Below are positions 19,993 to 41,721 of a DNA stretch of 64,000 nt, piece after piece; within the stretch, counting starts at the first letter, position 1, and each line of letters starts with the position of its first letter. The stretch spans positions 10,545 through 74,544 of IMG/VR virus record IMGVR_UViG_3300037264_002389. One strand, written 5' to 3'. The notes below the pieces were generated by a model. That model had not been told where the DNA came from and made no database searches. It saw nothing but the letters and a program-made list of their open reading frames with translations. Source of the DNA: a virus. Taxonomy: Duplodnaviria > Heunggongvirae > Uroviricota > Caudoviricetes. A program made the position numbers and the translations under genes.

Positions 19993-22914
19993 TTGGAGTC
20001 ACTAATGCCTCTTAAATGGCAATTATGGGATCGAGTCCGCGCTTTTATGCGGCAAGCTCAGATCTACAGAACCGATAATTTATATCAAGACCAAGAGACA
20101 ATCGACAAGATAGTATATGGAGGACAATTTCTTGACTTTAGTAAACAATCGGCTCTATTTGAACAGACCAGTCTACAGATAAATCGTCTGGAGCGCTATA
20201 AAGATTATGACATGATGGACGAAGTAGGTGAAGTCAGTCTAGCACTTGACATGTACGCGGACGAATCAACATTAATTGATCCAGAACGAAAGCACTCAAT
20301 AATAGTAAAAGCCAAGCGTAAGGGTCTCAAGAAAATTGTAGAAGATCTATTATATAACACATTAATGATTGACAGAGAAATTAGACCATTGGTACGTTAC
20401 CTATGCAAATATGGCGACTTTGTATCAGAAATTATACCAACTAAGAACCGCGATGGAGTTGCATCATTCAAATTCATGAACGTCTATAATTTCACACGAG
20501 TTCAAACCAAATATGGTGATCTAGTCGGTTTCTATTACCAAGACGCCGGTCTAGCAGAACCACAATTCTTACACCCATGGCAAGTAATGCACCTAAGACT
20601 TACAAGTTATGAAACTGTGTATCACCCTTACGGGCGATGTAGCGCACTGTGCAGCACAGTGTGCACACCAACTGGTTATAAATTATTGAAAGATATTCAG
20701 AAAGGTGATCAAGTATATTCGTTTGATCTTAAGACACAAAAACCAGTTATTACTACCGTTCTTGATAAGGTCTTAAATGGCAAGAAGAAGACGTTAATTA
20801 TTAAGACTAAACATCGTTCAATTCAAGTTACACCAGAACACCCAATGTTGGCTATTATTAAGAATAATTATATTTGTGAAGAACAATTATGTAGAGGTAC
20901 CGACCGCAATAAGCCACATATTCGTAGGCAACATAAGAGAGATATTAAAACTAAACAGTATGTTTTAGCACAAGATCTGGTCAGAAATGATAAACTTGTA
21001 CTTCCGAAGCTACACAATCCTGGGGTTGATATTCCAATTGAATCATACAAAATTGCACAACAATATGATGGTAAGAGAATGTGCTTCCCGCAATATGTTA
21101 CTGAAAATTTTGCTAGATTGATTGGTTTTTTGATTGGTGATGGTTGGGTCCCAAATGGAGGTAGGACATTATGTTTTGCAGAAGGTGAATATCAAGAATT
21201 AAATAATAAATATATTAGTATTATTAAATTATTTAATTATGAATCAGAACCATATCGGCATATTATCAAGGATAAAAATGGGCAAGAAAAGAAACATGGT
21301 TATTTCACATTTAACTCCATAGAATTAGCTCAGACAATAGTTAATATGGGTCTTGTTGGTCGCTGTTATGAGAAACGTATTCCTAAATGGGTGTTTGTTG
21401 CTAAGGAAGAAATTAAGAAGGCATTTATTGAAGGGTTGGTCGATGCAGATGGTTCAACAAATATTGATGAATGGGATTGTGAGCGATATCAAATTGAATT
21501 AACCTCAGAAGAGTTAGTGAAAGATCTGAAGGTCTTATTAGATCAAATGAATATTAAGTGTGGGAATATTAGCAAGCGTAATCGCTCTGATCCGATTGTT
21601 GTGTTTGATGGTGAAGAATATGAACGTCGTGATTCATGGATTGTGTATTGGTATGATGCTAAGATGCCATCAGGTGATTTAATGCATATGGGTAAGCGTA
21701 GGACGAAGTACGACAATTCATCTGATGACTATCTGGTTGAATCTATCCTATCGATAGAAGACGGTGGCGAGGTTGAAGTTGGTGATATCCAGGTTTCAGA
21801 GCATCACAACTTCGTGGCCGATGGTGTTGTTATCCACAATTCGATGTTAGATGGTGGTCGTAAGGATTTCAAACGTCTTAGACTGATGGAAGATGCCGCG
21901 CTTGTCTACAGGCTGACCCGCGCCCCCGAAAAGCGGATTTTTAGTATTCCAGTTGGTAATATTCCACCTAAGGAAGTGCCACAATATATTGAGTTGCTTG
22001 CTCGTCAGATGAAGAAGCATAAGTTCGTTGATCCTGCTACTGGTCAAGTTAATGAGCGTTATAGTCCACTAATTCAAGATGATGATTTCTGGTTGCCTAA
22101 GAGAGCTGATGGCACCGGCCCAACTATTGATACTTTACCGGGTGCTGAGAACCTTGATCAGATTGCTGATATTGAATATTTCAAGAAGAAGATGGTGGCT
22201 GGATTAAAGATTCCGTTTAATCGGGTTGGTATTGGTGAACCAGCTGAGGCCGATGGACGCTCATTGGCTTCTGTTTCACCTGAGTTTGCCAAGGCGATTC
22301 AATGGGTACAGCGTGAAGTGGTAATGGGTATTAAGAAGATTGTGCTTGTTCATTTGGCACTTCGTGGGCATTCTGTTGACGATCTTAGCAGTTTTGATTT
22401 GTCAATGACCGCCGCAAGTGCGATCGATGAGTTATATCGTATTGAAACATGGAATACTAGATCTGATATTATGAAGAACCTGAAGGAGCTTGGCTTCTTC
22501 CCTGATGAATGGATTGTTGAGCGCTTTACGGATATGTCGCCAGATGAAATTGCGCTTATGAAGAAGCAGAAGGGTGTTATTGCGCCGGATGAAATGAAGG
22601 CTGAAGATGTACAAGATGATGAAACTCGTGATCTAATTCTTGAGTATAATAACTTGCGGCCACACAGAGAATTACAGATTGATAATAGACATGATGTTAT
22701 AATATTTGCACCACAGTTCTATGTTAATGCTAAGGAACTTGATGGTTTGAAGAATAAGGATGGCAAGTATATTGTCGAAAGTAGTGTTGCAGAGGACGAT
22801 GCAACCGCAGTTAAAAAAGAGACGCGTAATTTATTGATGGAGGAAGCTGGTCACAAATCAGTTGAAGTTGATAGTGTTGTTAAGCAAATGGACGATGTTC
22901 CTACAAAAGAATAA
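19993..22914 (+). CDS. portal protein (gp20-like) interrupted by an intein
   Basis: 973 aa; about 580 aa remain without the intein, consistent with T4 gp20 size. Lies directly downstream of terL and upstream of the prohead protease. Confidence 0.8.
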   Translation: MESLMPLKWQLWDRVRAFMRQAQIYRTDNLYQDQETIDKIVYGGQFLDFSKQSALFEQTSLQINRLERYKDYDMMDEVGEVSLALDMYADESTLIDPERKHSIIVKAKRKGLKKIVEDLLYNTLMIDREIRPLVRYLCKYGDFVSEIIPTKNRDGVASFKFMNVYNFTRVQTKYGDLVGFYYQDAGLAEPQFLHPWQVMHLRLTSYETVYHPYGRCSALCSTVCTPTGYKLLKDIQKGDQVYSFDLKTQKPVITTVLDKVLNGKKKTLIIKTKHRSIQVTPEHPMLAIIKNNYICEEQLCRGTDRNKPHIRRQHKRDIKTKQYVLAQDLVRNDKLVLPKLHNPGVDIPIESYKIAQQYDGKRMCFPQYVTENFARLIGFLIGDGWVPNGGRTLCFAEGEYQELNNKYISIIKLFNYESEPYRHIIKDKNGQEKKHGYFTFNSIELAQTIVNMGLVGRCYEKRIPKWVFVAKEEIKKAFIEGLVDADGSTNIDEWDCERYQIELTSEELVKDLKVLLDQMNIKCGNISKRNRSDPIVVFDGEEYERRDSWIVYWYDAKMPSGDLMHMGKRRTKYDNSSDDYLVESILSIEDGGEVEVGDIQVSEHHNFVADGVVIHNSMLDGGRKDFKRLRLMEDAALVYRLTRAPEKRIFSIPVGNIPPKEVPQYIELLARQMKKHKFVDPATGQVNERYSPLIQDDDFWLPKRADGTGPTIDTLPGAENLDQIADIEYFKKKMVAGLKIPFNRVGIGEPAEADGRSLASVSPEFAKAIQWVQREVVMGIKKIVLVHLALRGHSVDDLSSFDLSMTAASAIDELYRIETWNTRSDIMKNLKELGFFPDEWIVERFTDMSPDEIALMKKQKGVIAPDEMKAEDVQDDETRDLILEYNNLRPHRELQIDNRHDVIIFAPQFYVNAKELDGLKNKDGKYIVESSVAEDDATAVKKETRNLLMEEAGHKSVEVDSVVKQMDDVPTKE
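20662..21840 (+). mobile_element. intein with two-motif LAGLIDADG homing endonuclease
   Basis: N-terminal Cys candidates at 20638, 20650 and 20662, so the start is uncertain. LAGLIDADG blocks LIGFLIGDGW and IEGLVDADGS. Ends VVIHN (HN at 21835-21840) followed by Ser at 21841 as the +1 residue. Confidence 0.8.
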
Positions 22915-23007: not shown

Positions 23008-26000
23008 ATGGCACAGCCAATCAATCGTATTGACAATATTATCGAGATGGATGCCCGCAAGTTCTTAAGAATGCTTAATTCAGGGGCACCAAGTCAAATT
23101 ACAATCTTTAGTGAACGCGTTCAGGCCATGGGCGAGAAGATTGGTCGGAACTGGCAGTTGGTATCACTTGATAGCACTAGCATCATAATTGAAGACAAAG
23201 GCAATCACACCTATTATTGTGCCAGCATTGAACGTTTAGCTCAAGGTCGTGTCAAAATTGCGAATCCAAGACCAATTAAGATTACAGAATCAGAAAAACC
23301 CGAAATGTTCCACAAGAATGTTGTTGAGTTGATCGAAGCGATTGAGGATGAAGATACAAAGAAAGCCGATAGCTGTTTTAATCGTATCGCCCATCAACGC
23401 TTTCGGTCCAAGGTAATACCTGAGTCTGGCTTCATTACGACCTTAGACGGAATCTCACGATACATTCCGGTATCGAAGACTATTGTAAGTGAGAAATGTA
23501 AGCCAGAGATTATCAAGAAGATCTGCGAGGCATTAGTCGATACAGTCAAGGTTACTCGTGGACGTATCGTAGAGGCAGTATTCAATGAGAAGCCAGTTCA
23601 ATTCCCAGTAAGTGAATTAACTCGTAGACGTGTAGTTGCTCGATGCATGAAAGATGTTGCGAGCAAGGCATATACCTCCGAAGGATTCCAGAATCGGATT
23701 AAGCACATTGCGTCATTAGTCTGTGATGGCAAGATTAAAGAAGCGGTTCAGAATGCAATCGAGTTCTTGAAGGAAGAGCAAGAATTTTCTTTACTAAATC
23801 TTGCCGAGACACAGACACTGACCGCCAACACTCTGGCGGCAGTTGGTAGCTTTAATGATAAGTTAGCAGAAGATGTTGGAAAGCTCTTCTATAGGACTAA
23901 CTGCACAATCAACAAAGACAATATTATTAAAGAATGGCGAGAAGTGGCTAGAATGACCGAATTTGCGCCATTTGTTGAGAACGTTCATAAGCTCGCTGAA
24001 TCAAAGGACTTCGAGAAAGATTACCCAATATTCCTTGATGTTATATTCAATGAGGACATGACTACTAAAGCGGCGAAGGCCAAGATGTACCTCAATGCCC
24101 TCAAGGATATGCGTAATATCCTAGCCAATAGTGATGTCGATCAGGAATTGACAGAGTCAATTGATGAATATATCGTCAGACTTGAACGTTCCGCAGATCA
24201 TATTGATGATGCGACCTTAATGGAAATCGAAGAATTGGTAGCATCAACATCTGAGAATCTGCTTAATGATGTGAATAGTTTAGCTGATTATGATTCAATT
24301 CCTGAACCAAAAGATGCTGAACCAGAAACATTTGGTGATCAGGATCTTGGCGGAGCTGCTGGTGCGGGAGCTGGTGAAGGTGGCTTATCACTCCCACTGG
24401 GTGGCGAGGAGTCGGCAGCCCCTGAGGGTGGTGAGGGTGGTGAGGGTGGTGAGGCTGGTGAAGGTGGTGGTGAAGGTGATGAAGGTGAGGGCGAAGAAGG
24501 AGCTGGAGAGGAAGCAGAGGATATTCTCAAGGCCTTTGAGTCTAAAAAGACAAAGGGCACACCCATCTCAGAAATGGGCACGACAACAGCTAATATAGCT
24601 GTTGCGCCTCATGGACGGGTGGCCGAAGATAAATGCTCGAAATGTGGCGGCATGATTCAGGATGAAGTTTGTTCAGAATGTGGCCATGTGGCCGAGGATG
24701 AACTTGAGAAATATGAAGCCAAGTTATCGACTGCTGTTGCTTCTCTCAGTGAAGAACAACTTACGATTGAATTGAAGGAATGGCAGAAGAATCATAAGAA
24801 GTTCTTTGCAGAGGACGGCAATGAAAAGGCGGCTCGTACCCTTAAGGTTTACATTCTACATGCCAATAAGTTAAAGTCGAATGGCTTGGTAGAGAGTTTC
24901 AAGCAGATTCTGTTTGAGAACGTTGAGCCAGATCTGTCAGAAGTCAAGACTGATCCATATGCTTACAAGGCACCAAAAAATACCAAGATCGGTCACACTT
25001 ATAATAGTCTGAAAGAAGACCATGCCGAAATGCCGGGTAAGATGAAGCAGAGTAAAGAAGGTGGGCAAGTTGGTAGTAAGGAGACTGCCAAAGGCAATGC
25101 AATGGGCTGTGGCGGCGAAGAGGATCAGAATGTCGCCAAAGATGCAGGACATAAGGGCGCTCTTCTCAAGAAGGGTACTAAGACAGCTGCCGAAGATATT
25201 ACTTGCCCTGAATGCAAGCGTAATTCTGATCTTGCTGAATGCATGACAGCAGATGGTGCAGCCTGTCCACATTGTGGTGCAGATGTAACCGAGTTAATGA
25301 TTGAAGCCCTTGAAATTAAGGAGAACATCAAGGGTGCCGGTCATAAGATGGATCGGATTGATGGAGACAAGGGCAGTGTTGCTAAGACTACTGCTACTCA
25401 GTCAAATGGTGCCCGTGTTGGTGGTAGTGCTGATGGTATGGATGGTCAGGATGGTAAGGGAGTTACTGGTAGAGGTACATCTCAAAATGATGGACGAGGT
25501 GCAGGCGGCAAAAAAGATGGTATGGATGGTCAGGATGGTAAAGGAGTAACTGGTGCCGGGATGGGCAAGAGTGATGGTAAGTCTGGTGGATCTGCCGCTA
25601 AGGGAGTTGATGAGGATCAATATAAGAGTGGTATTAAACGTCGCCGGATGGCTTTCCCAGGTGCTGGTCGTGCAGCAATAACTAAGTCGGAGGCGACTAC
25701 CCCTAAGAATATGATTGAGGCTTTTGGCGATGAGTTAGGTGATAAATCGCTAGATGACGATATGCCTGAGGAGCCAGTAGGTGGCGCTATGGAGGGGCCG
25801 GTTGAGGAGCCGATGGAAGAGCCGATGGAAGAGCCGATGGAGGAGCCGATGGAGGGTGGTGCTATTGGCTCTCCATCTACGACTGTTACTGTCACCGGTT
25901 CTGAAGAGACTGATGATGGTCGTTCTAAGTCTCAGTCGGTTACTTGGACCACACCCGATACCGTTGATGATGTTGTAAGCAAGATTGCGGCTAGTCTTGA

Positions 26001-26538
26001 ACCTGAGATGGGTGGGCTTGATATGGGTGAAGAGCCTGGTGAGGGTCTGCCAGGTGAGGGTCTGCCAGGCGATGAGGGCTTGCCAGGTGGCGAGGTTCCA
26101 GAAGATGACATGATGCCACCAGATGAAGACGAAATGGAATTGCCTGGTAGTGAAGGCGAAGAGGGTGGTGAAGAGGGTGGTGAAGGGGGCGGACCACCTC
26201 CTGGTATTACGGAGCCAGAAGAAGGTGAGGGAGAGGAAGAAGAGGAAGAGGAAGAAGAGGTAGAAGAAGGTAAACTACCAGCTCACTTAAAGAAATTTAA
26301 ATTTGGTAAGAAGAAAGATGATTCGTCAGATGATGAATCAGATGAATCAGACGAATCATCGAAAGATGCCGTAAAAGAAGACAATAATATTGGTAAGCCA
26401 ACCGATAAGGGCCACGATAGTGTTGAAACCGCTCGTAAGGATGGCGGTGGCAAGCAGATGAATCCGAAGCCAAAATGGTCCGATAAGGACTATGATGGAA
26501 CTAAAGGTGCAAAGACAGCTAAGAGTGGAGATAAGTAA
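23008..26538 (+). CDS. very large acidic low-complexity protein with two Cys4 zinc ribbons (candidate prohead core or internal protein)
   Basis: 1176 aa; GEGGEGGEAGEGG, DGMDGQDGKGVTG x2, (EEPM)x4, EEEEEEEE runs, DESDESDES. CSKCGG...CSECGH and CPECKR...CPHCG zinc-ribbon pairs. Occupies the gp67/gp68/IP position. Confidence 0.6.
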   Translation: MAQPINRIDNIIEMDARKFLRMLNSGAPSQITIFSERVQAMGEKIGRNWQLVSLDSTSIIIEDKGNHTYYCASIERLAQGRVKIANPRPIKITESEKPEMFHKNVVELIEAIEDEDTKKADSCFNRIAHQRFRSKVIPESGFITTLDGISRYIPVSKTIVSEKCKPEIIKKICEALVDTVKVTRGRIVEAVFNEKPVQFPVSELTRRRVVARCMKDVASKAYTSEGFQNRIKHIASLVCDGKIKEAVQNAIEFLKEEQEFSLLNLAETQTLTANTLAAVGSFNDKLAEDVGKLFYRTNCTINKDNIIKEWREVARMTEFAPFVENVHKLAESKDFEKDYPIFLDVIFNEDMTTKAAKAKMYLNALKDMRNILANSDVDQELTESIDEYIVRLERSADHIDDATLMEIEELVASTSENLLNDVNSLADYDSIPEPKDAEPETFGDQDLGGAAGAGAGEGGLSLPLGGEESAAPEGGEGGEGGEAGEGGGEGDEGEGEEGAGEEAEDILKAFESKKTKGTPISEMGTTTANIAVAPHGRVAEDKCSKCGGMIQDEVCSECGHVAEDELEKYEAKLSTAVASLSEEQLTIELKEWQKNHKKFFAEDGNEKAARTLKVYILHANKLKSNGLVESFKQILFENVEPDLSEVKTDPYAYKAPKNTKIGHTYNSLKEDHAEMPGKMKQSKEGGQVGSKETAKGNAMGCGGEEDQNVAKDAGHKGALLKKGTKTAAEDITCPECKRNSDLAECMTADGAACPHCGADVTELMIEALEIKENIKGAGHKMDRIDGDKGSVAKTTATQSNGARVGGSADGMDGQDGKGVTGRGTSQNDGRGAGGKKDGMDGQDGKGVTGAGMGKSDGKSGGSAAKGVDEDQYKSGIKRRRMAFPGAGRAAITKSEATTPKNMIEAFGDELGDKSLDDDMPEEPVGGAMEGPVEEPMEEPMEEPMEEPMEGGAIGSPSTTVTVTGSEETDDGRSKSQSVTWTTPDTVDDVVSKIAASLEPEMGGLDMGEEPGEGLPGEGLPGDEGLPGGEVPEDDMMPPDEDEMELPGSEGEEGGEEGGEGGGPPPGITEPEEGEGEEEEEEEEEVEEGKLPAHLKKFKFGKKKDDSSDDESDESDESSKDAVKEDNNIGKPTDKGHDSVETARKDGGGKQMNPKPKWSDKDYDGTKGAKTAKSGDK

Positions 26539-27248
26539 TGTTAGCGACTATGAAACCTAGAATTGATCGGGATAAGGTCTTCTACACGGGCCTTATTCCC
26601 GATGGTTATCAATTAATTCAAGATTCACGACCACTTAAGGTTCTAGACATTAAGCGTGGTACGATATCCGAAGAAAGAGATGGTAAGAATTTCGAAGTAC
26701 CAGTAATGCGTGTTGTTGGTGTATTCCAAAGAGCCAATGAGAAGAATGCTAATGGCCGGATCTACCCTAAGTCTGTTCTTGAATCAGCGGTTAAATCCAT
26801 ACAGTCTGCAATTAAAGAACGCCGAGTAATGGGTGAGTTTGATCACCCACCAGATGCTAAGATCCATCTTGACCGTGTATCGCATCTCATTACTAACTTG
26901 TCGATGGATGGAAATAATGTGGTTGGTGAAGCAGAAGTCATGAATGATGATCGGATGCCATGTGGTTCAATGTTAGCTTGTCTATTGGAACGTAAGGTTC
27001 AAGTTGGCGTATCGTCTCGTGGTGTTGGTGAGATGGATCTAACTAGACATGAAGGTGAAGATGCATACGAAGTTCAAGAGGGTTATGCATTAGTAACTTT
27101 CGATACGGTTGCCGAGCCTTCAGTGTCTGGGACACAATTGAAGGTGATGGAAGAGAGTTTAAACCGCCATAAGTTGAATTCCAGGCAGTTCCGCGTGATG
27201 CGTGAGCGCCTGTTAGTAAGAGAATTGAGGAAGTACCTGGTTAGTTGA
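26538..27248 (+). CDS. prohead core protease (T4 gp21-like)
   Basis: NEKNANGRIYPKSVLESAVKSI vs gp21 VNRNKRLYPKRILEKAVKDY; GEFDHPP vs GELNHPP; GVSSRGVGE vs GVSSRGLGS. Confidence 0.85.
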   Translation: MLATMKPRIDRDKVFYTGLIPDGYQLIQDSRPLKVLDIKRGTISEERDGKNFEVPVMRVVGVFQRANEKNANGRIYPKSVLESAVKSIQSAIKERRVMGEFDHPPDAKIHLDRVSHLITNLSMDGNNVVGEAEVMNDDRMPCGSMLACLLERKVQVGVSSRGVGEMDLTRHEGEDAYEVQEGYALVTFDTVAEPSVSGTQLKVMEESLNRHKLNSRQFRVMRERLLVRELRKYLVS

Positions 27249-28038: not shown

Positions 28039-29619
28039 ATGCGGAATGCAACCCGATCAGGCGTCCCGGCACACGCCAGTCACTACGCTGGTGCTCTGAC
28101 CGAAGAACGCCGAGTAGTTCGTGACCAGCGCCTCATGCTGGAAGGTAAGAAAAACAAGCTCGTGAATCGCTGGAACCCAGTCCTCCGCAAGTGCTTGGAG
28201 ATACCGGCTCAGAAGTTTGGCCTCATGGCTGCTATGCTGGAAAACCAGTACGCAGCTTGGGACCCAAAGAACCGCAGCGCCATCTTTGAGGAAGCAACCA
28301 CCACAGGCAACATCGCTGACTTCACCCGATTTGCGCTCCCACTCATCCGCAAGAGCTACCCACGGCTAATCGCTGACAACTTGGTCGGCGTGCAGCCAAT
28401 GAGCAGCCCAGCTAGCTTGATCTTCTACATCCGGTATCGCTACGCCATTAGCAAGGGCCAAACGATTGCCGGAACGCAGATCATGCGCCAGAACACGGCG
28501 CAGCAGTTCAGCCGTCAGAACGGTTGGGCACTTGATCCATACTACAGCAGCCAGACCGTCAAGGGTGAAGAACTCACCATTAGCGGCGGTGGTGCAGTAA
28601 TCAGCGGCACTCTGGCCCACAAGCCAGTCCTCGCCGGAACAGTTGTTGTCAACGTCTTCCTCGAAGACGACGACAACTGCGAAGATCCAACCCCATGTCT
28701 CCAAGTCACCTTCGATGCCAACGGGAATCCAGATCTAGTCCTGGTTGGTGAATCGACGGACTGCCCAGACGTGACGGTTGACACCAGCACGACCGGTGCC
28801 ACGGTCTTCGACCACACCACTGGTGAAGTAACCATCACGCTCTCGGCTGGTTCCTTCGCTGGAACAGCAATTGCTCGCGCTGATTACGAGTTCGATCTGG
28901 AAAATAATCCTTTTCAGCCAGAACTAACTCTGTCGATCGACAGTGATTCAGTCTCAGCCGTAACTCGTAAGCTCAAGACCACCTGGTCCCTCGAAGCGGC
29001 CCAGGACCTCAAGAGCGTTCACAACATCGATGCCGAAGGCACCCTCACCGACCTGATGGCCGATGAGATCGTAGCCGAAATCGACCGCGAAATCATCAAC
29101 GATCTAATCATCGCGGCCTCGATCCGAGCTACGCACAACTTCGGTACCGCTGCCGGTGCATCAGTGAACTTCACAGACCGCAACATCGCGCTCCTCTACA
29201 AGGTGCTCGAAGTCGCCAACGTGATTCACCGCACCACCCTCCGTGGACCAGCCAACTGGATGGTAACCAGTGCTGATATTGCCTCGAAGTTTGAGCAGCT
29301 GAATGACTTCCGAGGCTCTGATGCACTGGCTCAGGACGGAATCGATATCGGCATCATGAGCGCCGGTACGATTCAGGGCAAGATCAAGCTGTACAAGGAC
29401 CCGTTGTTCCCGAACTGCAAAATCCTCCTTGGCTTCAAGGGGAACTCGGTTCTGGATGCGGGTTACTTCTACGCACCGTACATCCCACTCCTGAGCACCC
29501 CAACGGTCCTCGATCCCAATAGCTTCACGCCAAGCAAGGGTGTAATGACCCGCTACGGCAAGAAGTTGATTGAGGATGGAGGTCTTTATTACGGGGTAAT
29601 CACGGTTTCGAATTTGTAA
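28039..29619 (+). CDS. major capsid protein (T4 gp23 family)
   Basis: LVGVQPMSSP vs gp23 CGVQPMNSP; SLEAAQDLKSVHNIDAEGTLTDLMADEIVAEIDREIIN vs SIELAQDLRAVHGMDADAELSGILATEIMLEINREVVD; AGYFYAPYIPL vs AGIYYAPYVAL. Confidence 0.92.
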   Translation: MRNATRSGVPAHASHYAGALTEERRVVRDQRLMLEGKKNKLVNRWNPVLRKCLEIPAQKFGLMAAMLENQYAAWDPKNRSAIFEEATTTGNIADFTRFALPLIRKSYPRLIADNLVGVQPMSSPASLIFYIRYRYAISKGQTIAGTQIMRQNTAQQFSRQNGWALDPYYSSQTVKGEELTISGGGAVISGTLAHKPVLAGTVVVNVFLEDDDNCEDPTPCLQVTFDANGNPDLVLVGESTDCPDVTVDTSTTGATVFDHTTGEVTITLSAGSFAGTAIARADYEFDLENNPFQPELTLSIDSDSVSAVTRKLKTTWSLEAAQDLKSVHNIDAEGTLTDLMADEIVAEIDREIINDLIIAASIRATHNFGTAAGASVNFTDRNIALLYKVLEVANVIHRTTLRGPANWMVTSADIASKFEQLNDFRGSDALAQDGIDIGIMSAGTIQGKIKLYKDPLFPNCKILLGFKGNSVLDAGYFYAPYIPLLSTPTVLDPNSFTPSKGVMTRYGKKLIEDGGLYYGVITVSNL

Positions 29620-29678: not shown

Positions 29679-29895
29679 TCTATACTTCTGTATTTAAAAA
29701 CTGCTATATGGCAAGGGTGGCCAACTTCGTGTTGGGAATGTTGCTTGGCGTAGGGTTGATGGCGAGGTTGAGTTGAGTTTGATTCCTGATTTTATTGATA
29801 AAGTTAAGGATAAGTGTGGGTCGCTTAGGGACGCTTTTGCTTAGATGGTGTATATCTTCTTGACTTTCTACCTTCTGATATAATGAGTAATAGAG

Positions 29896-29925
29896 AGGAG
29901 GTAATTAAATATGCCTGATGATATG
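29896..29925. repeat. 30-bp direct repeat, copy 1 (aggaggtaattaaatatgcctgatgatatg)
   Basis: Exact copy again at 30080-30109. Confidence 0.9.
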
Positions 29926-30081
29926 AACGAAAAACGTAAGCAGGAGAATAATAGTAAACTTCTTTCTATAATAGAAGATTCTGAATGTAAATTATCCTTA
30001 ATATATATATTTGTTTTTGGAATTCCATTTTTAATTTTATTGATTAAGATATTATTTGATATTTATACTTATAATAAATAG
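29911..30081 (+). CDS. 56-aa AT-rich small membrane peptide (MPDDMNEKRKQ...FGIPFLILLIKILF)
   Basis: Perfect RBS aggagg 8 nt upstream; hydrophobic C-terminal half; very AT-rich unlike its neighbours. Confidence 0.4.
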   Translation: MPDDMNEKRKQENNSKLLSIIEDSECKLSLIYIFVFGIPFLILLIKILFDIYTYNK

Positions 30082-30109
30082 GAGGTAATTAAATATGCCT
30101 GATGATATG
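30080..30109. repeat. 30-bp direct repeat, copy 2, recreating RBS plus ATG and then a stop after five codons (MPDDM*)
   Basis: Exact duplicate of 29896-29925. Confidence 0.9.
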
Positions 30110-30839: not shown

Positions 30840-32480
30840 TTGATAAGACAATGCAACCCCGACAAAGGAGGTCACATGGTGTTGTTTATTATTGGGATAT
30901 TACTGGTGGTGGCTGGAATTGTGATATATGCTGGAGCGCCAATGAATAGATTGGTTAAACTTGCTATTGCAGCTAGTTTAGGTTTAGTTGGTTTTGTTTT
31001 CGTGTTTACTTCGACGGTGGCTCTTGTGCCTGATGGTACATCTGGTGTTGTTATTAAGAAATTTGGGCCTAATTTACCGCAGGGTCAAATTGTTGCACGT
31101 AATGGTGAACAGGGACCACAGGCTGCGTTACTTGGTCCTGGTTGGCATTTTTGGTTTTGGCCTTGGGTGTATACGATTGAGCCTGTGGATATTTATGAGG
31201 TACAACGTGGTCAAGTTGGTGTTGTCGTTGCTCTTGATGGTAAGCCACTTCTGGATGGTGAGATATTCGCCAAAGAGTTTTCGTCAATTGATGATATGAT
31301 TGATGGTGAAAAGTTCTTGGCTAGTGGTTTTAAGGGTCCGCAGCTAACTGTTCTTGGTCCTGGTCAATATCGTATTAATCCTAGATTATTTAATGTTAGT
31401 AATCATCCTGCTCTTGAGGTCGATATGGGTGAGGTTGCAGTTATTAAGGCTAATGCTGGTCAGATGCCAACAGAAAAGGATATTAATGTACTTGTTAATG
31501 GTTTGCCGTTGGTTCCTAAGTGATTTCGTGGTGTGTGGAAGGATGCTTTGCCTCCTGGGGCATATTATTTGCATCCGAATGCATATATCGTTACTAAGGT
31601 TGCTACGTCTAAGCGTGTATATGATTATGCTTTATCTGAGGTTAAAGATCTTAGTGATCCTATTTCGGTTAGGTCGAAGGATGGTTTTACTTTTCCGGTT
31701 GATGTGCGTGTTGCGGTTTCTATTTCTGCAGAGGAGGCTCCATATATTTCAGCTATGTTAGGCAATCCGGATGGTATTGTTCAAGATGGTGAGGATAAGG
31801 GCAAGATTTGTATTCTTGAGGCTAGGTTGATTTTGCCTTCGATTAGGACTATTTTTAGGAATGTTGCTGAGAAGTTGACTGCTTTACAATTTGTTGATTC
31901 TCGTTCTGTTGTAGAGAAAAATGCTACTGATTTGTTTATTGCAGATGTGAAGCAATTTCGTATCAATACTAATGGTGTATTTGTTGGTCAGATCGATCTA
32001 GACAATAATGAGATTACTAGATCATTGATGAAGACCAGGACTGATATGGAGATTGCGTTGAATCAGCAGAAGATGTATCTGGAGCAGGAGAGAGCACAAC
32101 AGGAGCGAGCTAAGTTTACCAAGTCAGAGGAGATTGCTGAGCAACAGAAGACTTTGGTTGCTGCTCAGTTTCAGGTTGATGTTCAGAAGGAGAAGTCAAA
32201 GGCGCGTGAGGTTGAGGCGGCTGGTGAGGCTAAGTATGTTGAGATTACGTTTGCTGCTCGTCGTAAGGCGTATGAGGATTTGTGTAAGGCGATTGGTTCT
32301 GAGTCAGTTACTATTCTTGAGATTTTAAAGACAGTTAAGGAAGGTAATATTCAGATTACGCCTCAGGTCATGGTGTCTGGTTCTAGTGGTGATGTTACGG
32401 GTGCATTGGCTGGTACGATTCTTAATAGTATTCTTAAGAAGGATACTCTTAAGAAGGGATCGCAATCAGAGAAGGAATAG
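30840..32480 (+). CDS. SPFH/band-7 flotillin-like protein interrupted by an in-frame TGA at 31521-31523
   Basis: N-terminal part has a TM segment plus an SPFH-like core GVVIKKFGPN...VQRGQVGVV. The second ORF (31533..) continues in the same frame with a long coiled-coil flotillin-like C-terminus. Combined length is about 545 aa, typical of YqiK-type flotillins. Confidence 0.6.
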
Positions 32481-32663: not shown

Positions 32664-33185
32664 ATGATCAATATTAAGGAATTGGCGATGTTGTTGTCTG
32701 AGGATATTAGGGATAATAATGGTTTTGTGTTGAATGAGGCAGGTATTCAACCTGGTCAACCTGGTCAGCCTGGTGGTAAGCCCCAGACAGGGTCTGGGGA
32801 TGAAATTACTCAAAATGATGATGTAGTTTTTCAAGCAATTGCAAGAAGTATCGCGATTGCTCTTGATGAGCAGGATTTGTATAGGATGTTGGATGGTGGC
32901 AAAGTAGTTACTCTACAACAGCTTGAAACTGATGATGTTGTTTTTGTGTTGAATAATGTGTCTGTGAAGCAGTTATCAGGTAATGAGGAAACTAGGGAAC
33001 TTCAGGTGTCTGGGGTTATGGATGAAGCAGTGATCGCTGCCAATACCGATCAAGAGCGAACTGTTCTTAATGTGCCTTTCAATGGTAAGTTATTGATTAC
33101 CCCAGGTGGAGTTGAGGGTGCTATTAAGATATATGGTTCACGTGGTAAGCCTGATAGTGGAAGTAATCTAATAGCATTAGGTTGA
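32664..33185 (+). CDS. hypothetical protein
   Basis: 173-aa ORF with RBS aaaggag. Confidence 0.45.
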   Translation: MINIKELAMLLSEDIRDNNGFVLNEAGIQPGQPGQPGGKPQTGSGDEITQNDDVVFQAIARSIAIALDEQDLYRMLDGGKVVTLQQLETDDVVFVLNNVSVKQLSGNEETRELQVSGVMDEAVIAANTDQERTVLNVPFNGKLLITPGGVEGAIKIYGSRGKPDSGSNLIALG

Positions 33186-33255
33186 ATATTGAATGACAGT
33201 ATGGGTGAACTACCATTAAAAGTGAATAGGGTTCTGAGTGAACCAGTATATTAAT

Positions 33256-33298
33256 ATATTGGGTTACTCCTCACTAATGACGAGGAGTAACCCAATAT
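33256..33298 (+). promoter_or_regulatory. 17-bp perfect stem hairpin abutting the start codon of the next gene
   Basis: atattgggttactcctc-actaatgac-gaggagtaacccaatat; the right arm contains gaggag (RBS-like); ATG at 33300. Confidence 0.5.
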
Positions 33299-33299
33299 T

Positions 33300-33650
33300 A
33301 TGTATCTGAATCATATGAGTATTATGAGGGAGATTACTGAAAAGGATTGGGCTAAGAAGGATGAGTTGCAGAGTAGGTTGGATAAGTTGTTGGTGGAGGC
33401 TACAGAGGCTAAGTTGGTGTTGTATTTCCATGTTGGTCTAAAGCGTTCGGCTTTTATGATGTCTTATTTGTCTGAGACGATGAAGAATAATACAGCTGGG
33501 GCTTCATTTGGTTTTAAGGGTATTTGTGATTTTACTCCTCTGCCGTTCAGATTTGATTTTGATAGTAGCGATGGTGCTTTGTCTTATGGGTCTTCACCGC
33601 GTCCTGCCGATGAGCTAGCTATTAAGAAGAGGATTTACGCGCAGGAGTAG
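33300..33650 (+). CDS. hypothetical protein
   Basis: 116-aa ORF. Confidence 0.45.
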   Translation: MYLNHMSIMREITEKDWAKKDELQSRLDKLLVEATEAKLVLYFHVGLKRSAFMMSYLSETMKNNTAGASFGFKGICDFTPLPFRFDFDSSDGALSYGSSPRPADELAIKKRIYAQE

Positions 33651-33654
33651 ATCA

Positions 33655-33927
33655 TTGAGTGATTTAGAGTCTGTTGGCCCATTGTTGGTCGAGATGATGA
33701 AGGCTGGTTATTTTTGTCGAGTATGGTGTCAATCTGAGGTTAGTGAGGAACGGCGTTGGCATGTGACTTTTGAAAAAGGCTGTCCACGTCCTAATCAGGA
33801 AGTGTGGCCGTGGGCGTGGGCTGAGGACACTGATTTGGTTGTTGCGGTTAAACGAGCATCGTCTGAGGCTAGGGAGCGCGAACGGGAGTTTTCTTACAAG
33901 GAGAATCGCCATGGAAGAACTGATTGA
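33655..33927 (+). CDS. hypothetical small protein carrying repeat B1
   Basis: 90 aa; contains the 33739-33888 sequence that is repeated at 35092-35199. Confidence 0.35.
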   Translation: MSDLESVGPLLVEMMKAGYFCRVWCQSEVSEERRWHVTFEKGCPRPNQEVWPWAWAEDTDLVVAVKRASSEAREREREFSYKENRHGRTD

Positions 33928-34204
33928 ACAAGTAGTCCGGGAGTTCGACTACGAAAAGTGTTTGTTATTGATGAGGGCTTCTGGGCATCAATGGGCTTGC
34001 GAAGGTATGCCCGGAAGTGAGTACCCCTCCGTCGAAAGAATGAAGGCATCGCTTGCCGACATACTTCGCGATCTTCTGATTAAGTTCGAAGGAAATGGGG
34101 AGTGTGGTGTCGGAGGGTTCAAGGTTTCTATTCGAGACGGGAAACTTCAAGTTTGGTTTGTTACGTCTTTTAAACAGGAGTTCGGGGTGGAGGTCTGCGC
34201 CTGA
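33911..34204 (+). CDS. hypothetical protein (internal ATG with RBS aaggagaa)
   Basis: 98 aa read from an ATG inside the 33770 ORF frame. Confidence 0.35.
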   Translation: MEELIEQVVREFDYEKCLLLMRASGHQWACEGMPGSEYPSVERMKASLADILRDLLIKFEGNGECGVGGFKVSIRDGKLQVWFVTSFKQEFGVEVCA

Positions 34205-34251
34205 AGTAGGTTGATACTTTACGCGAAGATCTTAAATGATACGACCCTCGT

Positions 34252-34885
34252 AGACAACTCGGTGTCTGGTCCACGCCGCCCACTCGTCAGAGGGGCGATA
34301 CCGAAAGGAGAGTAGCCGTGTACCATCGCGGAAAAGCCCTCAAACAGAGGGCAATCAGCCACATCGTCGCCACAATGCACAACATCCCCGAATGTGCGCC
34401 TACGGGGGTGGGTGCTGGTCCCAAGAAAATCGGCTATCTGGCCGGTTTCGACTTCCACAGCCCCCATAAGCGGCAGTTCGCCAGGGGTCTGCTCTTGGAA
34501 GCTCTTGACCTGGGCTTGGTCAAGCAAGTACCGATGGGTAGGAGCCGCCATCGGTATGTCCTCAGCGTCGAACAACAACAGCCGACGCATTCCCCGTACT
34601 ATGCTAACTGGCTCAAGCAAGAAGGCGCAACCATCATCGTAGCGTCCATGAATCTGTATCTGGATTATTTCATCCAGGTTGGTCCTCGTCTCAAGTCCCT
34701 TGAAGTTGAAGTTGGGACTGGGTTGTACGAGCCGAGTAACAGCCATACCCACCGTGGTTACTGGGCATGGCTGATCAGGGAAGAACTTGTTCATCGCGGA
34801 CAGCTCGTCAAGGTTGAGAACGAGCTGAGGATTGTTCTAGGTGATGCCCGTAGCATCATCTAGTTAATCAGACACCGAGTTGTCT
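34252..34885. mobile_element. GC-rich island bounded by perfect 17-bp inverted repeats (agacaactcggtgtctg / cagacaccgagttgtct)
   Basis: IRs at 34252-34268 and 34869-34885; the interior is about 58% GC against ~40% background; one ORF inside. Confidence 0.45.
34318..34863 (+). CDS. hypothetical protein encoded inside the IR-flanked island (GTG start, RBS gaaaggagag)
   Basis: 181 aa with high GC3 codon bias on the + strand. Confidence 0.4.
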   Translation: MYHRGKALKQRAISHIVATMHNIPECAPTGVGAGPKKIGYLAGFDFHSPHKRQFARGLLLEALDLGLVKQVPMGRSRHRYVLSVEQQQPTHSPYYANWLKQEGATIIVASMNLYLDYFIQVGPRLKSLEVEVGTGLYEPSNSHTHRGYWAWLIREELVHRGQLVKVENELRIVLGDARSII

Positions 34886-34948
34886 TATTTTGTTATTTTG
34901 TTGATTTTCCGGCTATATTAATATATCTCTCTATACAAATATATTAAT

Positions 34949-35119
34949 ATGGCTAATAGCATTGAGTTAGATGGTATTAAACGTTATGAAAAAGCAATTA
35001 AACAGATAATTAGTACCCTTACTGGTCCTATTGGCCCTACTGGGTTAACTGGTCCTATTGGCCCCACGGGTCCCACCGGTCCTGCCGAAGGGTTAGTGAG
35101 GAACGGCGTTGGCATGTGA
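34949..35119 (+). pseudogene. truncated duplicate of the tail-fibre 5' end fused to repeat B2 (56 aa, [24 protein letters not shown] plus GPxG repeats)
   Basis: Near-identical to 35962-36040 and then diverges into B-repeat sequence at 35092. Confidence 0.55.
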
Positions 35120-35264
35120 CTTTTGAAAAAGGCTGTCCACGTCCCAATCAGGAAGTGTGGCCGTGGGCGTGGGCTGAGGCTAAGGAGCGCGAACGGGAGA
35201 GTCTTTCCAGAAGTCGTTAAGAAGACGTGGTTCTGGTAAAAATAGAAATAGGTTGGGTTAAGAT

Positions 35265-35819
35265 ATGAGAATGTTCCATTTAACCCGCAAGAGCAATCTA
35301 GAATCAATCAAGCAATCTGGTCTACAAGTTAGAAATGCAGATCCAACTCATGGCAAAGGGATTTACGTATTCGACAATATTGATCGTGCGGACGTGATGA
35401 TGTACCATCTATATGGAGGCTATGGCGGCGAGCCATCTGATTTCGTCATTGTTGAAGTAGACATCGACCCGAAGGACCTCCTTATGGATGAGGACGCCCT
35501 AATAAATCTATTTAATGACCAAGACTTTGCCGCTTATGTATCGCCAGAAGCATTTAAGGTCTATCAGTTAGCGGTTGAGAAATGGGGCGATGATGTCAAT
35601 TCCATAGACGATCCGGAGGTTGCATTGTTTAAACAGTGGTTGATCGAGAAATACAACATCTTAGCAGATAAACGATTTACAATACCTACGAGAGATTTTA
35701 TTTTCACAGGCAAGGTGCTCTCACAGCCGCCGATTATTGCGTTTCATGCAATGCCAGTTGAGGATGAAGATGGATTTGATGAAAAACTTTCCGAGGCGCT
35801 AAGATACCACGCATTATGA
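35265..35819 (+). CDS. hypothetical protein
   Basis: 184-aa ORF. Confidence 0.45.
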   Translation: MRMFHLTRKSNLESIKQSGLQVRNADPTHGKGIYVFDNIDRADVMMYHLYGGYGGEPSDFVIVEVDIDPKDLLMDEDALINLFNDQDFAAYVSPEAFKVYQLAVEKWGDDVNSIDDPEVALFKQWLIEKYNILADKRFTIPTRDFIFTGKVLSQPPIIAFHAMPVEDEDGFDEKLSEALRYHAL

Positions 35820-35961
35820 GTTAGTAGTCGTTAGGATAGAACCAGTCATGGCTTGATATTCGATGAATTCTAGGAAGTTAGTGATGTCGTGTATTCCATA
35901 AGCCACCTATTTCCGGCGCTCTGTAAAAGCGTATAGCGCTATTCTATACAAATATATTAAT

Positions 35962-38319
35962 ATGGCTAATAGCATTGAATTAGATGGTATTAGACGTTAT
36001 GAAAAAGCAATTAAACAGATAATTAGTACCCTTCCACAAGGCCCTACCGGAGACACTGGCCCCATTGGTCCTACCGGATCAATTGGTCCCACTGGTCCCA
36101 TCGGTCCCACTGGGCCTACTGAGGGGTTTGTTAAGACTGCTGATAATGCTCCAAATATTTTGGTACTTTCTACGGATTTTCTTTATCAGATTCAGGTGTC
36201 TGGCGATACCGGTGATCGTTATAATATTGATGGCGCTGGGAAAATGTCGTGGGGAAATGGCGGTGGCGCTACTGATGTGTCTCTTGAGAGACTTGCCGCT
36301 AATATTCTTAAAATAGATGATACATTACAGGTAGATAATATTCTTCTTAATAGCCCATTTTCTTTTGCTGACGGTGTGCTTTCAAGTGATTCGACTTCTT
36401 TTTTACGCCTATTTACAGCAACTCCGAGCGCATATACAGCTGATCCTGATGTAGATGCGTTTGATATATTTTTCCGTGCTCAAGATGGTGGTGCACATAC
36501 TGTTAATAATCCTGTTGGCGGATCATTTGTTTATGTTCCTGGAGATCAAGGTGCTGGTGGGTCGGGTGCGCGAGGGAAGTTTATTGTCCGTGCTCCCGTG
36601 GCTGGGGAATATGCGACGTTCCAGGCGCAGGATAGTGGTAGCAATGCCAGATTTACTATTAATTCTGGTGGCGCGGTTAGTATGACGCCAGTTGCACAGT
36701 CAGGCACCGTTAATCCTGATTTTACTTTTACGGCTCCTGCACATGGGCCGCTTACGGCTGGTACTTCCCGTGCGGATGTAACGTTTGATCTGACGGCTAC
36801 TCATACTTGGGCAACTGGTGCTGGCCCAAACCCTCAGCGGTTCATCCGGTTTCTAGCTCCGACTCTGGACTATGTTGGGGCTTCGTCCTCGAATCTGATT
36901 CACTTCATCAACATCAGTGGTGGAGTGATTGCCGGACCTAACGCTACTATCGGGGTGAGCACGGCGCTCTACATCAGCAGCCACAACGTCGCCTCTGGTG
37001 GCGGCATCGTTTCTCAAGCGCGTGGCTTAAGCGTCGATCACCCCACAGGCGCGTCGTACAACATGGCGTTCCGGGTTCCTACTGCGCCTCAAGCAAGCAG
37101 CGGAAGCGCGTCACTGGCGATAGGCAGTGCTCGATTCGATGCCTCTGGTTTGACTCCCTTCTTCGGCAGCGTGAATGGCACGACCATTGGCGTGGCGGAA
37201 AACAGCTTTACCGGCTCGCTGATTGATTTACAGAACAATCAGAATCCTCATTTCCGTGTTTCTACTGGAGGTGTCGCTACTTCTGCTGTCGGACTTGAAG
37301 TTTTGTCTGCTGCTGCTGCCGGTGGTCTGAATCTTAATACATTGTCTACAGGAGCGAATGAATCATTAACGATTTCTTCAAAGGGCACTGGGACATTTAC
37401 TTTATCGTGCCCAGGGATCGGTAATGTTATTCTTCGCGCTAATGGTAACAATAGCATTACCGTCAGTCAGACAAGTTTTTCTTTTGTTCCAGTTGCTAGA
37501 TCTGGTGCTGACGGAAGCACTGCGACTTTTGTGATTACACTTCCAAGTGAATCTGCTGCTGCATTTACAGCGAGCACTGAGTCGCCAGATGTTAATCTTA
37601 ATATGACGCATACTAAGCAGCATGCCACTGGTGCTCTTACAACTAATCGTGAATTTATTGTTCAATCTGCTACACATAGTTTTGTGGGTGCGTCTACGTT
37701 GACGACTGCGGCTACTTTAGCAATTGATAATGCGCCTAGGGCTGGGTCAAATGCTACGATCACCAATAGTATTGCTTTTTTAATTCAATCGGTGAATTCT
37801 GTTGCTAATGGAGGAGCAGTTAATAATGCGTATGGTGCTTTAATTAATGCCCCAGTTGGGGCGACCAATAATATCGCTCTAGCATTGAAGGCAGCCGCTG
37901 GTCAGACTTCAAATATGTTCGAGATTCAGAATAGTTCTGGAACAGTTGAACTTTCTATTGATTCTGCTAATAATATTACATCTATTGGACGACTTACTCC
38001 GCGTGTTCAAACGGCAGCTGATGCTACTAGTATTACTCCAACTGGCAACACTGCGGATTTGGTCATTCAGACTAATACACAGGCTGCTGGTACACTTACC
38101 TTAAATGCACCTACAGGAACACCAGTCGATGGGCAGGTTCTTGTGGTAAGAGTTAAATGTACGAATAGTCAAACGTGGAGTTTTAATGCGATTTATAGAA
38201 GTGGAACTGATGTTTCCTTACCCACGACCACTACGGCTGGTATGGATGATTATCTTAGCTTCAAGTATAATGCTGCAGCCGCTGCATTTGATTGTGTTGG
38301 TCTTGCTAGAGGGTATTAG
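35962..38319 (+). CDS. tail fibre-like protein with N-terminal collagen-like GPxG repeats
   Basis: 785 aa; [27 protein letters not shown] at 36040-36120; Gly/Ala/Thr/Ser-rich repetitive beta-like body. Confidence 0.65.
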
Positions 38320-38357
38320 TGAGAATATATAGAATAGATCATGATAGGAGATAATTT

Positions 38358-38807
38358 ATGCAATTGATTTTAACCCCAGGCGAGTCGGTTTTCTTGTATC
38401 GAATATTGTTTAACCCTTATGCTTTTCCTCTTACGCATGTTCGAGTGGCAGGTCAGCCTCTCCTACCATGGCGTCCAAGAGGTGAAGGAAAAGAGGCGCT
38501 TCGAGTTGCGAAACAGATTCATGCTCTTAAGAAATGGTTCAACTTACATGTGGCAACCGAAGTTAGTGAAAAGTTTGGAAAAATCGAGCATCAATTTGGC
38601 ACTAGTGATATTCAGGTTGGTCTTACGCAAGTATATATTGATCTCCTTCTCGATCTTATTGAATATTATGAGCCTATAGGATGTTTAGCTGAATATGTTG
38701 ACGTATACTTGCCGTTAATTGGAAAATTAAAAGATGAAAAGTATATGATTGAAGATCCGTTTGTGGCACCGGAGTCTGAATCTACACCGAAGTCTGAACC
38801 TAAATAG
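38358..38807 (+). CDS. hypothetical protein (candidate fibre assembly partner by position)
   Basis: 149-aa ORF directly after the fibre gene. Confidence 0.4.
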   Translation: MQLILTPGESVFLYRILFNPYAFPLTHVRVAGQPLLPWRPRGEGKEALRVAKQIHALKKWFNLHVATEVSEKFGKIEHQFGTSDIQVGLTQVYIDLLLDLIEYYEPIGCLAEYVDVYLPLIGKLKDEKYMIEDPFVAPESESTPKSEPK

Positions 38808-40665: not shown

Positions 40666-41721
40666 GTGAAGCTTAATTATCTGCATATTGGTGCAGTTAG
40701 CGATCTAACTATTAATGAGGATTTTAATCCTGGGCAAGAAGAGCAATTAGCATATCTGCAAATGATGGCTGCACGGCAGGGTAAAGATGCCACTAAGTTT
40801 ATTAATAGAGTTCGTGGGTACGTTGATCCAACCCATGCCAAGAAGATGGGAGCAAAAGCCACTTTTGAGCGTTGGGTACAGGCAGCTATGCCGGGTGAAT
40901 CCAGAGTGGGACGCACTCTTGGTCGGCGGGTTAAAATCACAGTTCTAGAATCAGCGGTCAAAGAAGCAATTACCGAAGGATTCTTTTCTGATATAGGCGA
41001 TGTTATCTTATCGAAGTTGCGTAATATTCTTGGCGATGATCGCAAAGAGCATGCCTTGGTTACTTCAGCATTGGATAGACATCCAGCACTCGCAGCTATA
41101 CATCGTTATGCTAAGAGAGCAGAACAACCGATTTATGATGACGAGAATTTCTGGGCGCTCGTCGATAAGATTACTAATGGCAAGGCTAATGAAATTAAGC
41201 GATTGACGCAAGCCACATTCAAGCGCATGTTAGAATCTAAAGAGCGTGTTAGTGTTCTTTCCGAGTGTGTTATAGTTGAAGCTAAGATGTCGGATGTAAT
41301 GTCAGAATTGGGCCTTGATCGTGATACTATTGACGGTTTAATACGACAATTTAATTTACGTGACGATGACTATGATTTAGCGCGAATGCGCGATGCCTTG
41401 ACCAAAGCCAAGGGTCGTGTAGAAGACGCTGTGCGTTATATGGCTGAGTTGCCCGGACGTAAGGCTGGTGAGTTAGTGCGTGGTGCTGGCGAGTTAGTGC
41501 GTGGTGCTGGTGAGAAGATTAAATCTGTTACCGACACCAAGCGCATGCAGGATGAGAATGCTGATTTAGCCGATCATGTGATTAGTTTGGCTGCTGTGAT
41601 TATGGATGTTCGTGAGGCGGATGCCACTACCCCGCAGGAGGTTGCGCAGGTTGTTGGCCAGGCTGCTAAGGTTGCAGACCCGTCTATAGTTGGTGCTGAA
41701 GAATTAGGAGCTAACGTCTAG
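40666..41721 (+). CDS. hypothetical protein with an internal 21-bp tandem duplication (GELVRGA x2)
   Basis: 351 aa; tandem repeat at 41466-41515. Confidence 0.45.
   Translation: MKLNYLHIGAVSDLTINEDFNPGQEEQLAYLQMMAARQGKDATKFINRVRGYVDPTHAKKMGAKATFERWVQAAMPGESRVGRTLGRRVKITVLESAVKEAITEGFFSDIGDVILSKLRNILGDDRKEHALVTSALDRHPALAAIHRYAKRAEQPIYDDENFWALVDKITNGKANEIKRLTQATFKRMLESKERVSVLSECVIVEAKMSDVMSELGLDRDTIDGLIRQFNLRDDDYDLARMRDALTKAKGRVEDAVRYMAELPGRKAGELVRGAGELVRGAGEKIKSVTDTKRMQDENADLADHVISLAAVIMDVREADATTPQEVAQVVGQAAKVADPSIVGAEELGANV

Follow-up and report, generated by a model that had tools for sequence, protein, structure and literature searches.

How does the beginning of a collagen-like fibre gene come to lie twice in one phage genome, the first time cut short and welded to a fragment of another gene? 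This question is raised by a 64,000-nt stretch of DNA, referred to here as the window, that covers positions 10,545 to 74,544 of the IMG/VR virus record IMGVR_UViG_3300037264_002389. The window comes from a metagenome-derived, uncultured phage, and all positions below follow its numbering. Upstream of a putative tail-fibre gene it carries two repeated segments, A (the fibre 5' end) and B (the 3' part of a small gene, gene B), which a first-pass annotation had read as a recombination scar. The locus probably results from one unequal illegitimate crossover, or from an equivalent insertion of a small circle, between two related phage genomes. In this event, accessory cassettes would have been stacked ahead of the intact fibre gene, with a dead 5' piece of a fibre gene as the remnant. 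It is a recombination scar of a known kind and not a new mechanism.

Repeat architecture and the joint between A1 and B2

Self-comparison of the whole window by blastn returns A and B as its two strongest repeats, each present in two copies in direct orientation. A1 (34930-35097) aligns with A2 (35943-36131) at an expectation value (E) of 1.6e-42, and B1 (33738-33826) with B2 (35091-35179) at 99% identity and E 3.5e-38; an additional 26 nt of B match at 96% (33863-33888 against 35174-35199). Such repeats are very unlikely to be chance, and the first-pass view of the region as a footprint of illegitimate recombination beside the fibre gene, with homologous flanks, is borne out. The parts of the locus are as follows.

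33655-33927, + strand: gene B, an open reading frame (ORF) of 90 aa with a TTG start and an AGGAG Shine-Dalgarno sequence 7 nt upstream; intact source of repeat B
33738-33888, + strand: B1, the 3' two-thirds of gene B
33827-33868, + strand: segment of 42 nt (14 codons) in B1 that is absent from B2, with CTGAGG at 33821-33826 and 33863-33868
33889-34929, + strand: cassette X, the 1041 nt that separate B1 from A1; unique sequence that includes a 97-aa ORF as well as ORF181 and the inverted repeats on either side of it
34930-35090, + strand: A1, a truncated fibre allele that has its 19-nt leader, its ATG (34949) and 47 codons, which encode a 24-aa N-terminus and 8 GXY triplets
34949-35119, + strand: chimeric 56-aa ORF; 47 fibre codons, then 8 codons of B2 out of frame to a TGA
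35091-35094, + strand: putative crossover point, GGTT
35091-35199, + strand: B2, a 5'-truncated copy of gene B whose frame stays open to its own TAA at 35218-35220 (ORF 35116-35220)
35200-35942, + strand: cassette Y, 743 nt of unique sequence between B2 and A2, with ORF184
35943-36131, + strand: A2, with which the intact fibre gene begins, leader included
35962-38319, + strand: intact fibre gene (putative tail fibre), 785 aa, collagen-like, without a Shine-Dalgarno sequence

The overall order is thus B1-X-A1/B2-Y-A2, where the slash marks the joint at which the two truncated copies directly abut: A1 ends after fibre codon 47, and B2 starts at nucleotide 84 of gene B. The joint reads CCGAAGGGTTAGTG; its A side reads CTGAGGGGTTTG in A2, and its B side CTGAGGTTAGTG in B1. 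When the three are viewed together, GGTT is the sole exact microhomology that they all share. The first-pass annotation was right that B is joined directly to a truncated A copy, and wrong in placing the junction at a ctgagg(g)tt microhomology, since CTGAGG, which A2 (36119) and B1 (33734) have at the equivalent places, is missing from the joint. A role for CTGAGG as a specific recombination site was rejected for this reason, although the motif is locally enriched (six copies on the + strand in 2.4 kb, against 0.9 expected) and lies at three breakpoints.

The fusion is out of frame, and the start codon of the chimeric ORF, that of A1, is buried in a 16-bp AU-rich hairpin. A fusion that leaves the reading frame and stops after eight codons is what would be expected of an unselected scar. 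The order B...A/B...A has a single novel joint, which leads from the downstream locus (the 5' part of A) to the upstream locus (the 3' part of B), and this is the signature of a duplication or unequal-crossover junction. The classical rII duplications of phage T4 carry novel joints of this kind, formed by illegitimate recombination at short homologies. Duplication and unequal-crossover joints of T4-type and other phages share with the present locus the one new downstream-to-upstream joint at a few bases of microhomology and the direct repeats that flank the unit. Homologous recombination between such repeats is expected to make the arrangement unstable, as would be the case here. Unlike the T4 tandem duplications, however, the units at this locus have unrelated cores, and their shared ends are 2-23% diverged, which indicates that the partners were two different haplotypes and not sister copies of one genome.

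A joint of this kind could in principle be made by an assembler. The sequence is a metagenome contig, its two halves resemble strain variants, and the joint has no independent sequence confirmation, so that haplotypes B-X-A and B-Y-A might have been joined head to tail in a chimeric contig. The two sides of the joint have only four exact bases in common, however, far fewer than the k-mer or overlap length of an assembler, and a path from A to B through an assembly graph needs real reads across the joint. Both copies are moreover cut at the joint and not at the boundaries of the repeats. An assembly artefact is highly improbable.

Two fibre alleles and two unrelated cassettes

The two copies of A are not uniformly alike. 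Their homology sets in exactly 19 nt before the ATG, and further upstream only a short TTTCCGGC string is common to both. Over the first 91 nt there are two differences (98% identity); a 21-nt indel follows, in which A2 is the longer, and the collagen-like GXY part beyond it is about 77% identical. This mosaic, with 2 differences in 91 nt and then 17 in 74 nt, is significant (Fisher p = 3e-5). Twelve of the 17 differences in the collagen part fall at third codon positions (binomial p = 0.002), and none hits a glycine of a GXY triplet. This bias suggests that the collagen part of A1 diverged under purifying selection, in a working fibre gene and not in a decaying copy. The collinear register also gives the best alignment (76%, against at most 64% in shifted registers), which argues that the divergence is not a by-product of repeat slippage. 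A1 therefore looks like the relic of a different, once-functional fibre allele.

A collagen part that lies 23% away from that of A2, mostly at synonymous positions, implies that two fibre alleles met in the history of the lineage. To this extent the first-pass idea of shuffling at the fibre locus is upheld. The intact fibre gene at 35962-38319 is itself not rearranged, and the scar does not show a change of host range. In the T4 superfamily, fibres and adhesins are modular, with a conserved N-terminal anchor and exchangeable distal parts (PMC3157838). The present alleles recall this arrangement, as their first 24 codons are 98% identical in nucleotide sequence and the following collagen part is 23% diverged, which fits a conserved attachment end and a variable shaft. 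They differ from it in that just a 47-codon relic of the second allele is left, and no exchange of a receptor-binding domain is visible.

The second copy of B tells a similar story. From B1 to B2 there is one synonymous change, one Arg-to-Lys replacement and one in-frame 42-nt indel. Past the end of homology, B2 has a different C-terminal tail that ends in a separate TAA, from which a 44-nt spacer leads to ORF184. B2 has the appearance of the last part of a complete, once-functional allele of gene B. The 42-nt segment had been described as an internal duplication flanked by ctgagg; the motif does stand on both sides, but the segment is unique sequence, and the difference is an in-frame indel. 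The sites around the two bounding CTGAGG copies are alike at 10 of 13 nt, and the difference is most simply explained by a microhomology-mediated deletion in B2. The protein of gene B has no match in Pfam, PHROG, NCBIfam or PADLOC, and none beyond its own source sequence in a set of 5.8 billion proteins.

In contrast to the repeats, cassette cores X (1041 nt) and Y (743 nt) show no mutual similarity in DNA or protein, and a simple tandem duplication in one genome is therefore insufficient. B and the 5' part of A have diverged to about the same degree (1-2%), which fits an origin of both repeat pairs in one event. The favoured explanation begins with co-infection of one cell by two related genomes, which would both have carried the order gene B, variable cassette, fibre gene A, and would have differed in their cassettes and fibre alleles. 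Parent 1 would have been B-X-A', with the 97-aa ORF and the winged-helix ORF181 in X, and parent 2 B'-Y-A, with ORF184 in Y. An illegitimate exchange at GGTT, 142 nt into the fibre gene of parent 1 (codon 47) and 83 nt into gene B of parent 2, would have given a product with both cassettes in tandem, the fibre gene of parent 2 intact, and a dead out-of-frame fusion between A1 and B2. By an alternative route, a circle closed at the same joint would have been inserted via homologous recombination. One non-homologous joint would be needed, all other boundaries being parental. The direct repeats of 89-91 nt should still recombine: an exchange between A1 and A2 would delete 1013 nt and restore B-X-A, and one between B1 and B2 would delete 1353 nt and restore B-Y-A. 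Events of these types are documented in T4-type phages, which make illegitimate exchanges, additions and replacements (PMC2993671) and in which ORFan cassettes bounded by direct repeats of about 100 bp are shuffled via mini-circles (PMC2839356).

The same junction geometry and microhomology would also result from a tandem duplication in a single genome, from within B to within A at GGTT, if one core and the downstream fibre allele were later exchanged by homologous replacement. A crossover within the conserved 5' 91 nt would then explain the sharp drop from 98% to 77% identity. As X and Y are unrelated and the collagen part of A is only 76-78% identical between the copies, the duplication must be combined with these replacements; at least three events are then required instead of one, and a second donor genome is still needed. 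The different, complete-looking 3' end of B2 with its own stop is also left unexplained. A duplication followed by replacements is unlikely.

Several points weigh against an origin from two parents. The joint is known from assembled metagenome sequence alone. The collagen-part divergence could also have arisen if homologous recombination later replaced the functional fibre, or in part by reshuffling of repeat units, and the argument for selection on B2 draws on just three differences and is weak. No carrier of B-X-A or B-Y-A was found in the collections searched, which makes both parents hypothetical; gene B, the fibre N-terminus, ORF184 and the flanking genes likewise have no homologue there beyond the source sequence. 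Megablast of 33000-38400 against phages gave no match, the exact DNA pattern of gene B was not found in IMG/VR, and neither the 116-aa ORF at 33300-33650 nor the 351-aa ORF at 40666-41721 has relatives in that database. The fibre protein had only a distant C-terminal match in phage, IMG/VR and metagenome collections; a further homology search with the fibre gave a weak negative, as it was swamped by collagen repeats and did not return the source protein itself. Comparison with related phages, proposed by the first-pass annotation as a way to tell ancestral from derived arrangements, hence yielded no polarity, and the ancestral arrangement and the existence of two parents are deduced from internal evidence. 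From the same evidence we infer the direction of the event and the continued recombination of the repeats.

Cassette exchange and mobile elements as possible explanations, and the contents of the cassettes

Modular shuffling in T4-type phages is associated with promoter-early stem-loop (PeSL) sequences and mini-circles (Arbiol et al. 2010, PMC2839356; Comeau et al. 2014, PMC4122927). The present locus resembles these systems in its ORFan cassettes, its place in a hyperplastic region, within a phage whose head module is T4-like, its direct repeats of about 100 nt that could excise or insert circles, and the AT-rich motifs and strong hairpins at its cassette borders. It differs in that its repeats are gene fragments (fibre 5' end, gene B 3' end), and in that its joint is non-homologous and within coding sequence. 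Whereas PeSL repeats are intergenic promoter-terminator units, A consists of a 19-nt leader plus coding sequence, and B is wholly coding. Scans for consensus promoters and terminators gave nothing above shuffled expectation, and a motif scan of the shared 19-nt leader, which the first-pass annotation had called promoter-like, found neither a sigma-70 nor a T4-late consensus. A T4 late promoter (TATAAATA) at the leader was accordingly rejected, as was an Rfam RNA element at the locus, which the Rfam search did not support. PeSL repeats also occur in many dispersed copies; A and B have two copies each. A 12-nt palindrome, TATATTAATATA, is local too: its four copies, perfect or with 11 of 12 matches, fall within 2.7 kb, and the rest of the 64-kb window has none at this stringency. 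Its sites lie before or at the starts of a 116-aa ORF (33300-33650), A1 and the fibre gene.

33246-33259: palindrome TATATTAATATA
34913-34926: palindrome TATATTAATATA
34939-34950: palindrome TATATTAATATA
35952-35963: palindrome TATATTAATATA

These three reading frames lack the AGGAG Shine-Dalgarno sequence carried by most other genes, and a perfect 17-bp hairpin at 33256-33298 (z = -4.5) stops one base short of the ATG at 33300.

The question is then whether A and B could be the reversible handles of a maintained, PeSL-like device for cassette exchange, or whether the 56-aa A1 peptide could itself be functional, for instance by modulating fibre assembly. Repeats of 89-91 nt with 98-99% identity are long enough for phage homologous recombination, the palindrome marks three gene starts within its 2.7-kb stretch, hairpins stand at the cassette borders as in the PeSL precedent, and the A1 reading frame is intact through the collagen part. 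On the other hand, the repeats are mostly coding, present twice each and fused in different frames, the joint lacks a promoter-terminator cassette, the genome has no wider family of such repeats, conservation in other phages cannot be shown, and the peptide would have to start from the codon buried in the hairpin. A dedicated device or a working peptide is very improbable indeed. A looser form of the idea, in which the stacked arrangement is a maintained polymorphic switch and the population continuously makes B-X-A, B-Y-A and B-X-A/B-Y-A together with mini-circles of 1.0 and 1.35 kb, is improbable. If true, the switch would let a nucleic-acid binder of the winged-helix type and an ADP-ribosyltransferase-like protein come and go before the fibre gene, and a large environmental phage would have a counterpart of PeSL shuffling that is built on coding sequence.

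The contents of the cassettes bear on a further possibility, that a mobile element made the duplication.

33911-34204: 97-aa ORF in cassette X
34252-34885, + strand: segment bounded by a perfect 17-nt inverted repeat, arms 34252-34268 and 34869-34885
34318-34863: ORF181, 181 aa, inside that segment
35265-35819: ORF184, 184 aa, in cassette Y

The segment around ORF181 had been singled out as an island of high GC content flanked by inverted repeats. The inverted repeat is real and perfect, and its right arm is followed by a T-rich run. The composition is only moderately unusual, as the 55% GC of the island, against a window mean of 41.6%, is matched by the 55% of the major capsid gene. ORF181 is modelled as a tandem winged helix (predicted local distance difference test, pLDDT, 84.6), and the model has weak fold matches to SelB, AlkX and cullin-type winged helices. 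The family is very rare, with 3 to 5 homologues at 42-47% identity among 1.8 billion representatives, all on short phage-like contigs; a search of IMG/VR with ORF181 found no relative of the locus.

An origin by a homing endonuclease gene, a transposon or a diversity-generating retroelement draws on the inverted repeat around ORF181, which lies between the copies, and on a homologue on one of the phage-like contigs, L081 (124-953), that is also bracketed by an inverted repeat, of 35 nt and 91% complementary. The phage also harbours a homing element elsewhere, a LAGLIDADG intein in its portal gene. Yet none of the ORFs at the locus gave a nuclease, transposase, recombinase or reverse-transcriptase match in domain searches, and ORF181 models as a tandem winged helix. 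Its inverted repeat has no flanking target-site duplication, and the 84%-identical relatives L084 and L085 lack the arms, so that the arms look like small intergenic hairpin repeats and not like element ends. Duplications of 110-170 nt also far exceed target-site duplications, and the mismatches between the repeats are not adenine-specific and lie at a gene 5' end. A mobile element is a scarcely credible source of the duplication. Four narrower candidates were rejected as well. An autonomous mobile element at the ORF181 island conflicts with the winged-helix model and the armless L084 and L085; a transposon or insertion-sequence element is contradicted, despite the 17-nt inverted repeat, by the lack of a target-site duplication and of any transposase match for ORF181. 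For a diversity-generating retroelement, the mismatches (G/A, A/G, T/C and indels) are of the wrong kind and at the gene 5' end, and the locus ORFs contain no reverse-transcriptase domain. An invertible fibre switch of the Gin/Cin/Min or shufflon type does not fit direct repeats at the 5' end, and the neighbouring ORFs have no recombinase domain.

Cassette Y offers a hint of function. ORF184 has sub-threshold Pfam matches to DarT (E 0.031), the PARP catalytic domain (0.051) and DUF7002 (0.06), and the N-terminal residues behind these ADP-ribosyltransferase-like matches are FHLT...SIKQSGL...GKGIYVF...VIVEVD. It may be an ADP-ribosyltransferase of the H-Y-E type. Its single-sequence AlphaFold model (pLDDT 42) is too poor for use, and ORF184 has no homologue in the phage collections searched, IMG/VR included. 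Sequence searches of Pfam, PHROGs, NCBIfam, PADLOC and PDB gave nothing above threshold for gene B, the 97-aa ORF, ORF181 or ORF184.

The fibre gene and the accessory region downstream of the capsid gene

The product of the intact fibre gene combines the 24-aa N-terminus, about 10 GXY triplets and two internal copies of a module that is also found in a 1238-aa metagenomic protein. Its C-terminal domain (about 105-122 aa) has 44% identity with a collagen-repeat protein from a 340-kb contig and 39% with a protein of Methylophilaceae phage P19250A that is annotated as a tail fibre. Matches to fibre PHROGs cover the collagen repeats only, and a PDB sequence search with the 785-aa protein found no match. 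The capsid gene is 6 kb away, on the upstream side, and the neighbours of the fibre gene are accessory genes and not recognisable tail genes. These features support a fibre-like nature of the protein, but do not extend to a function in host range.

By its gene content, the window is part of a large myovirus-like phage, in which the following genes serve as landmarks.

3498-6362: tail sheath gene
17986-19884: large terminase gene
19993-22914: portal gene, T4 gp20-like
26538-27248: prohead protease gene
28039-29619: major capsid gene, T4-type

Eighty IMG/VR contigs, some of them 100-400 kb long, have a capsid gene 72-96% identical to that of the window and share its head module, and none of the genes at 30.4-41.7 kb was found in any of them. 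These genes therefore belong to an accessory, fast-changing region downstream of the capsid gene, and synteny with the capsid relatives gave no ancestral state for the fibre locus.

A second, smaller scar of the same style lies in this hypervariable region, 4 kb upstream of the A and B repeats. A 38-nt unit made up of a ribosome-binding site and ATGCCTGATGATATG occurs at 29888-29925 and again at 30072-30109 with 95% identity; the first copy begins a membrane-like ORF of 56 aa, and the second runs directly into a TAG. This suggests that duplications of gene 5' ends recur in the region downstream of the capsid gene.

Other features of the window were noted in passing. Between this smaller scar and gene B, an SPFH/YqiK-like gene (30840-32480) is split by one in-frame TGA (31521-31523) into ORFs of 227 and 315 aa. 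The TGA aligns with an invariant glycine in six full-length homologues (about 530-550 aa), the simplest change being GGA to TGA; the closest homologues (at most 62% identity) include proteins from metagenome-assembled genomes of Planctomycetota and Verrucomicrobiota. Stop-codon recoding was rejected, because TGA is the commonest terminator in the window and its readthrough merges no other gene, which leaves a nonsense mutation, a sequencing error or readthrough at this site. In the portal gene, which encodes 973 aa, there is an intein (Intein_splicing and Hint), and it carries a LAGLIDADG homing-endonuclease domain, at about residues 214-616. An ORF of 1176 aa (23008-26538) has short internal direct repeats at 25432-25470/25516-25554 (95%) and 24478-24520/26218-26260 (81%). 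Two adjacent genes, of 176 aa (9673-10203) and 171 aa (10255-10770), are tandem paralogues whose nucleotide sequences are 64% identical along some 520 nt.

Read as the product of a two-parent unequal crossover, the fibre locus would be a clean example of how an accessory cassette is added to a large phage genome, with both parental boundaries still readable. It predicts that variants with the 1013-nt and 1353-nt deletions, and the matching mini-circles, would occur in the source population. The scar also keeps a 47-codon fossil of a second fibre allele, and this would be direct evidence that fibre alleles have met in the lineage.

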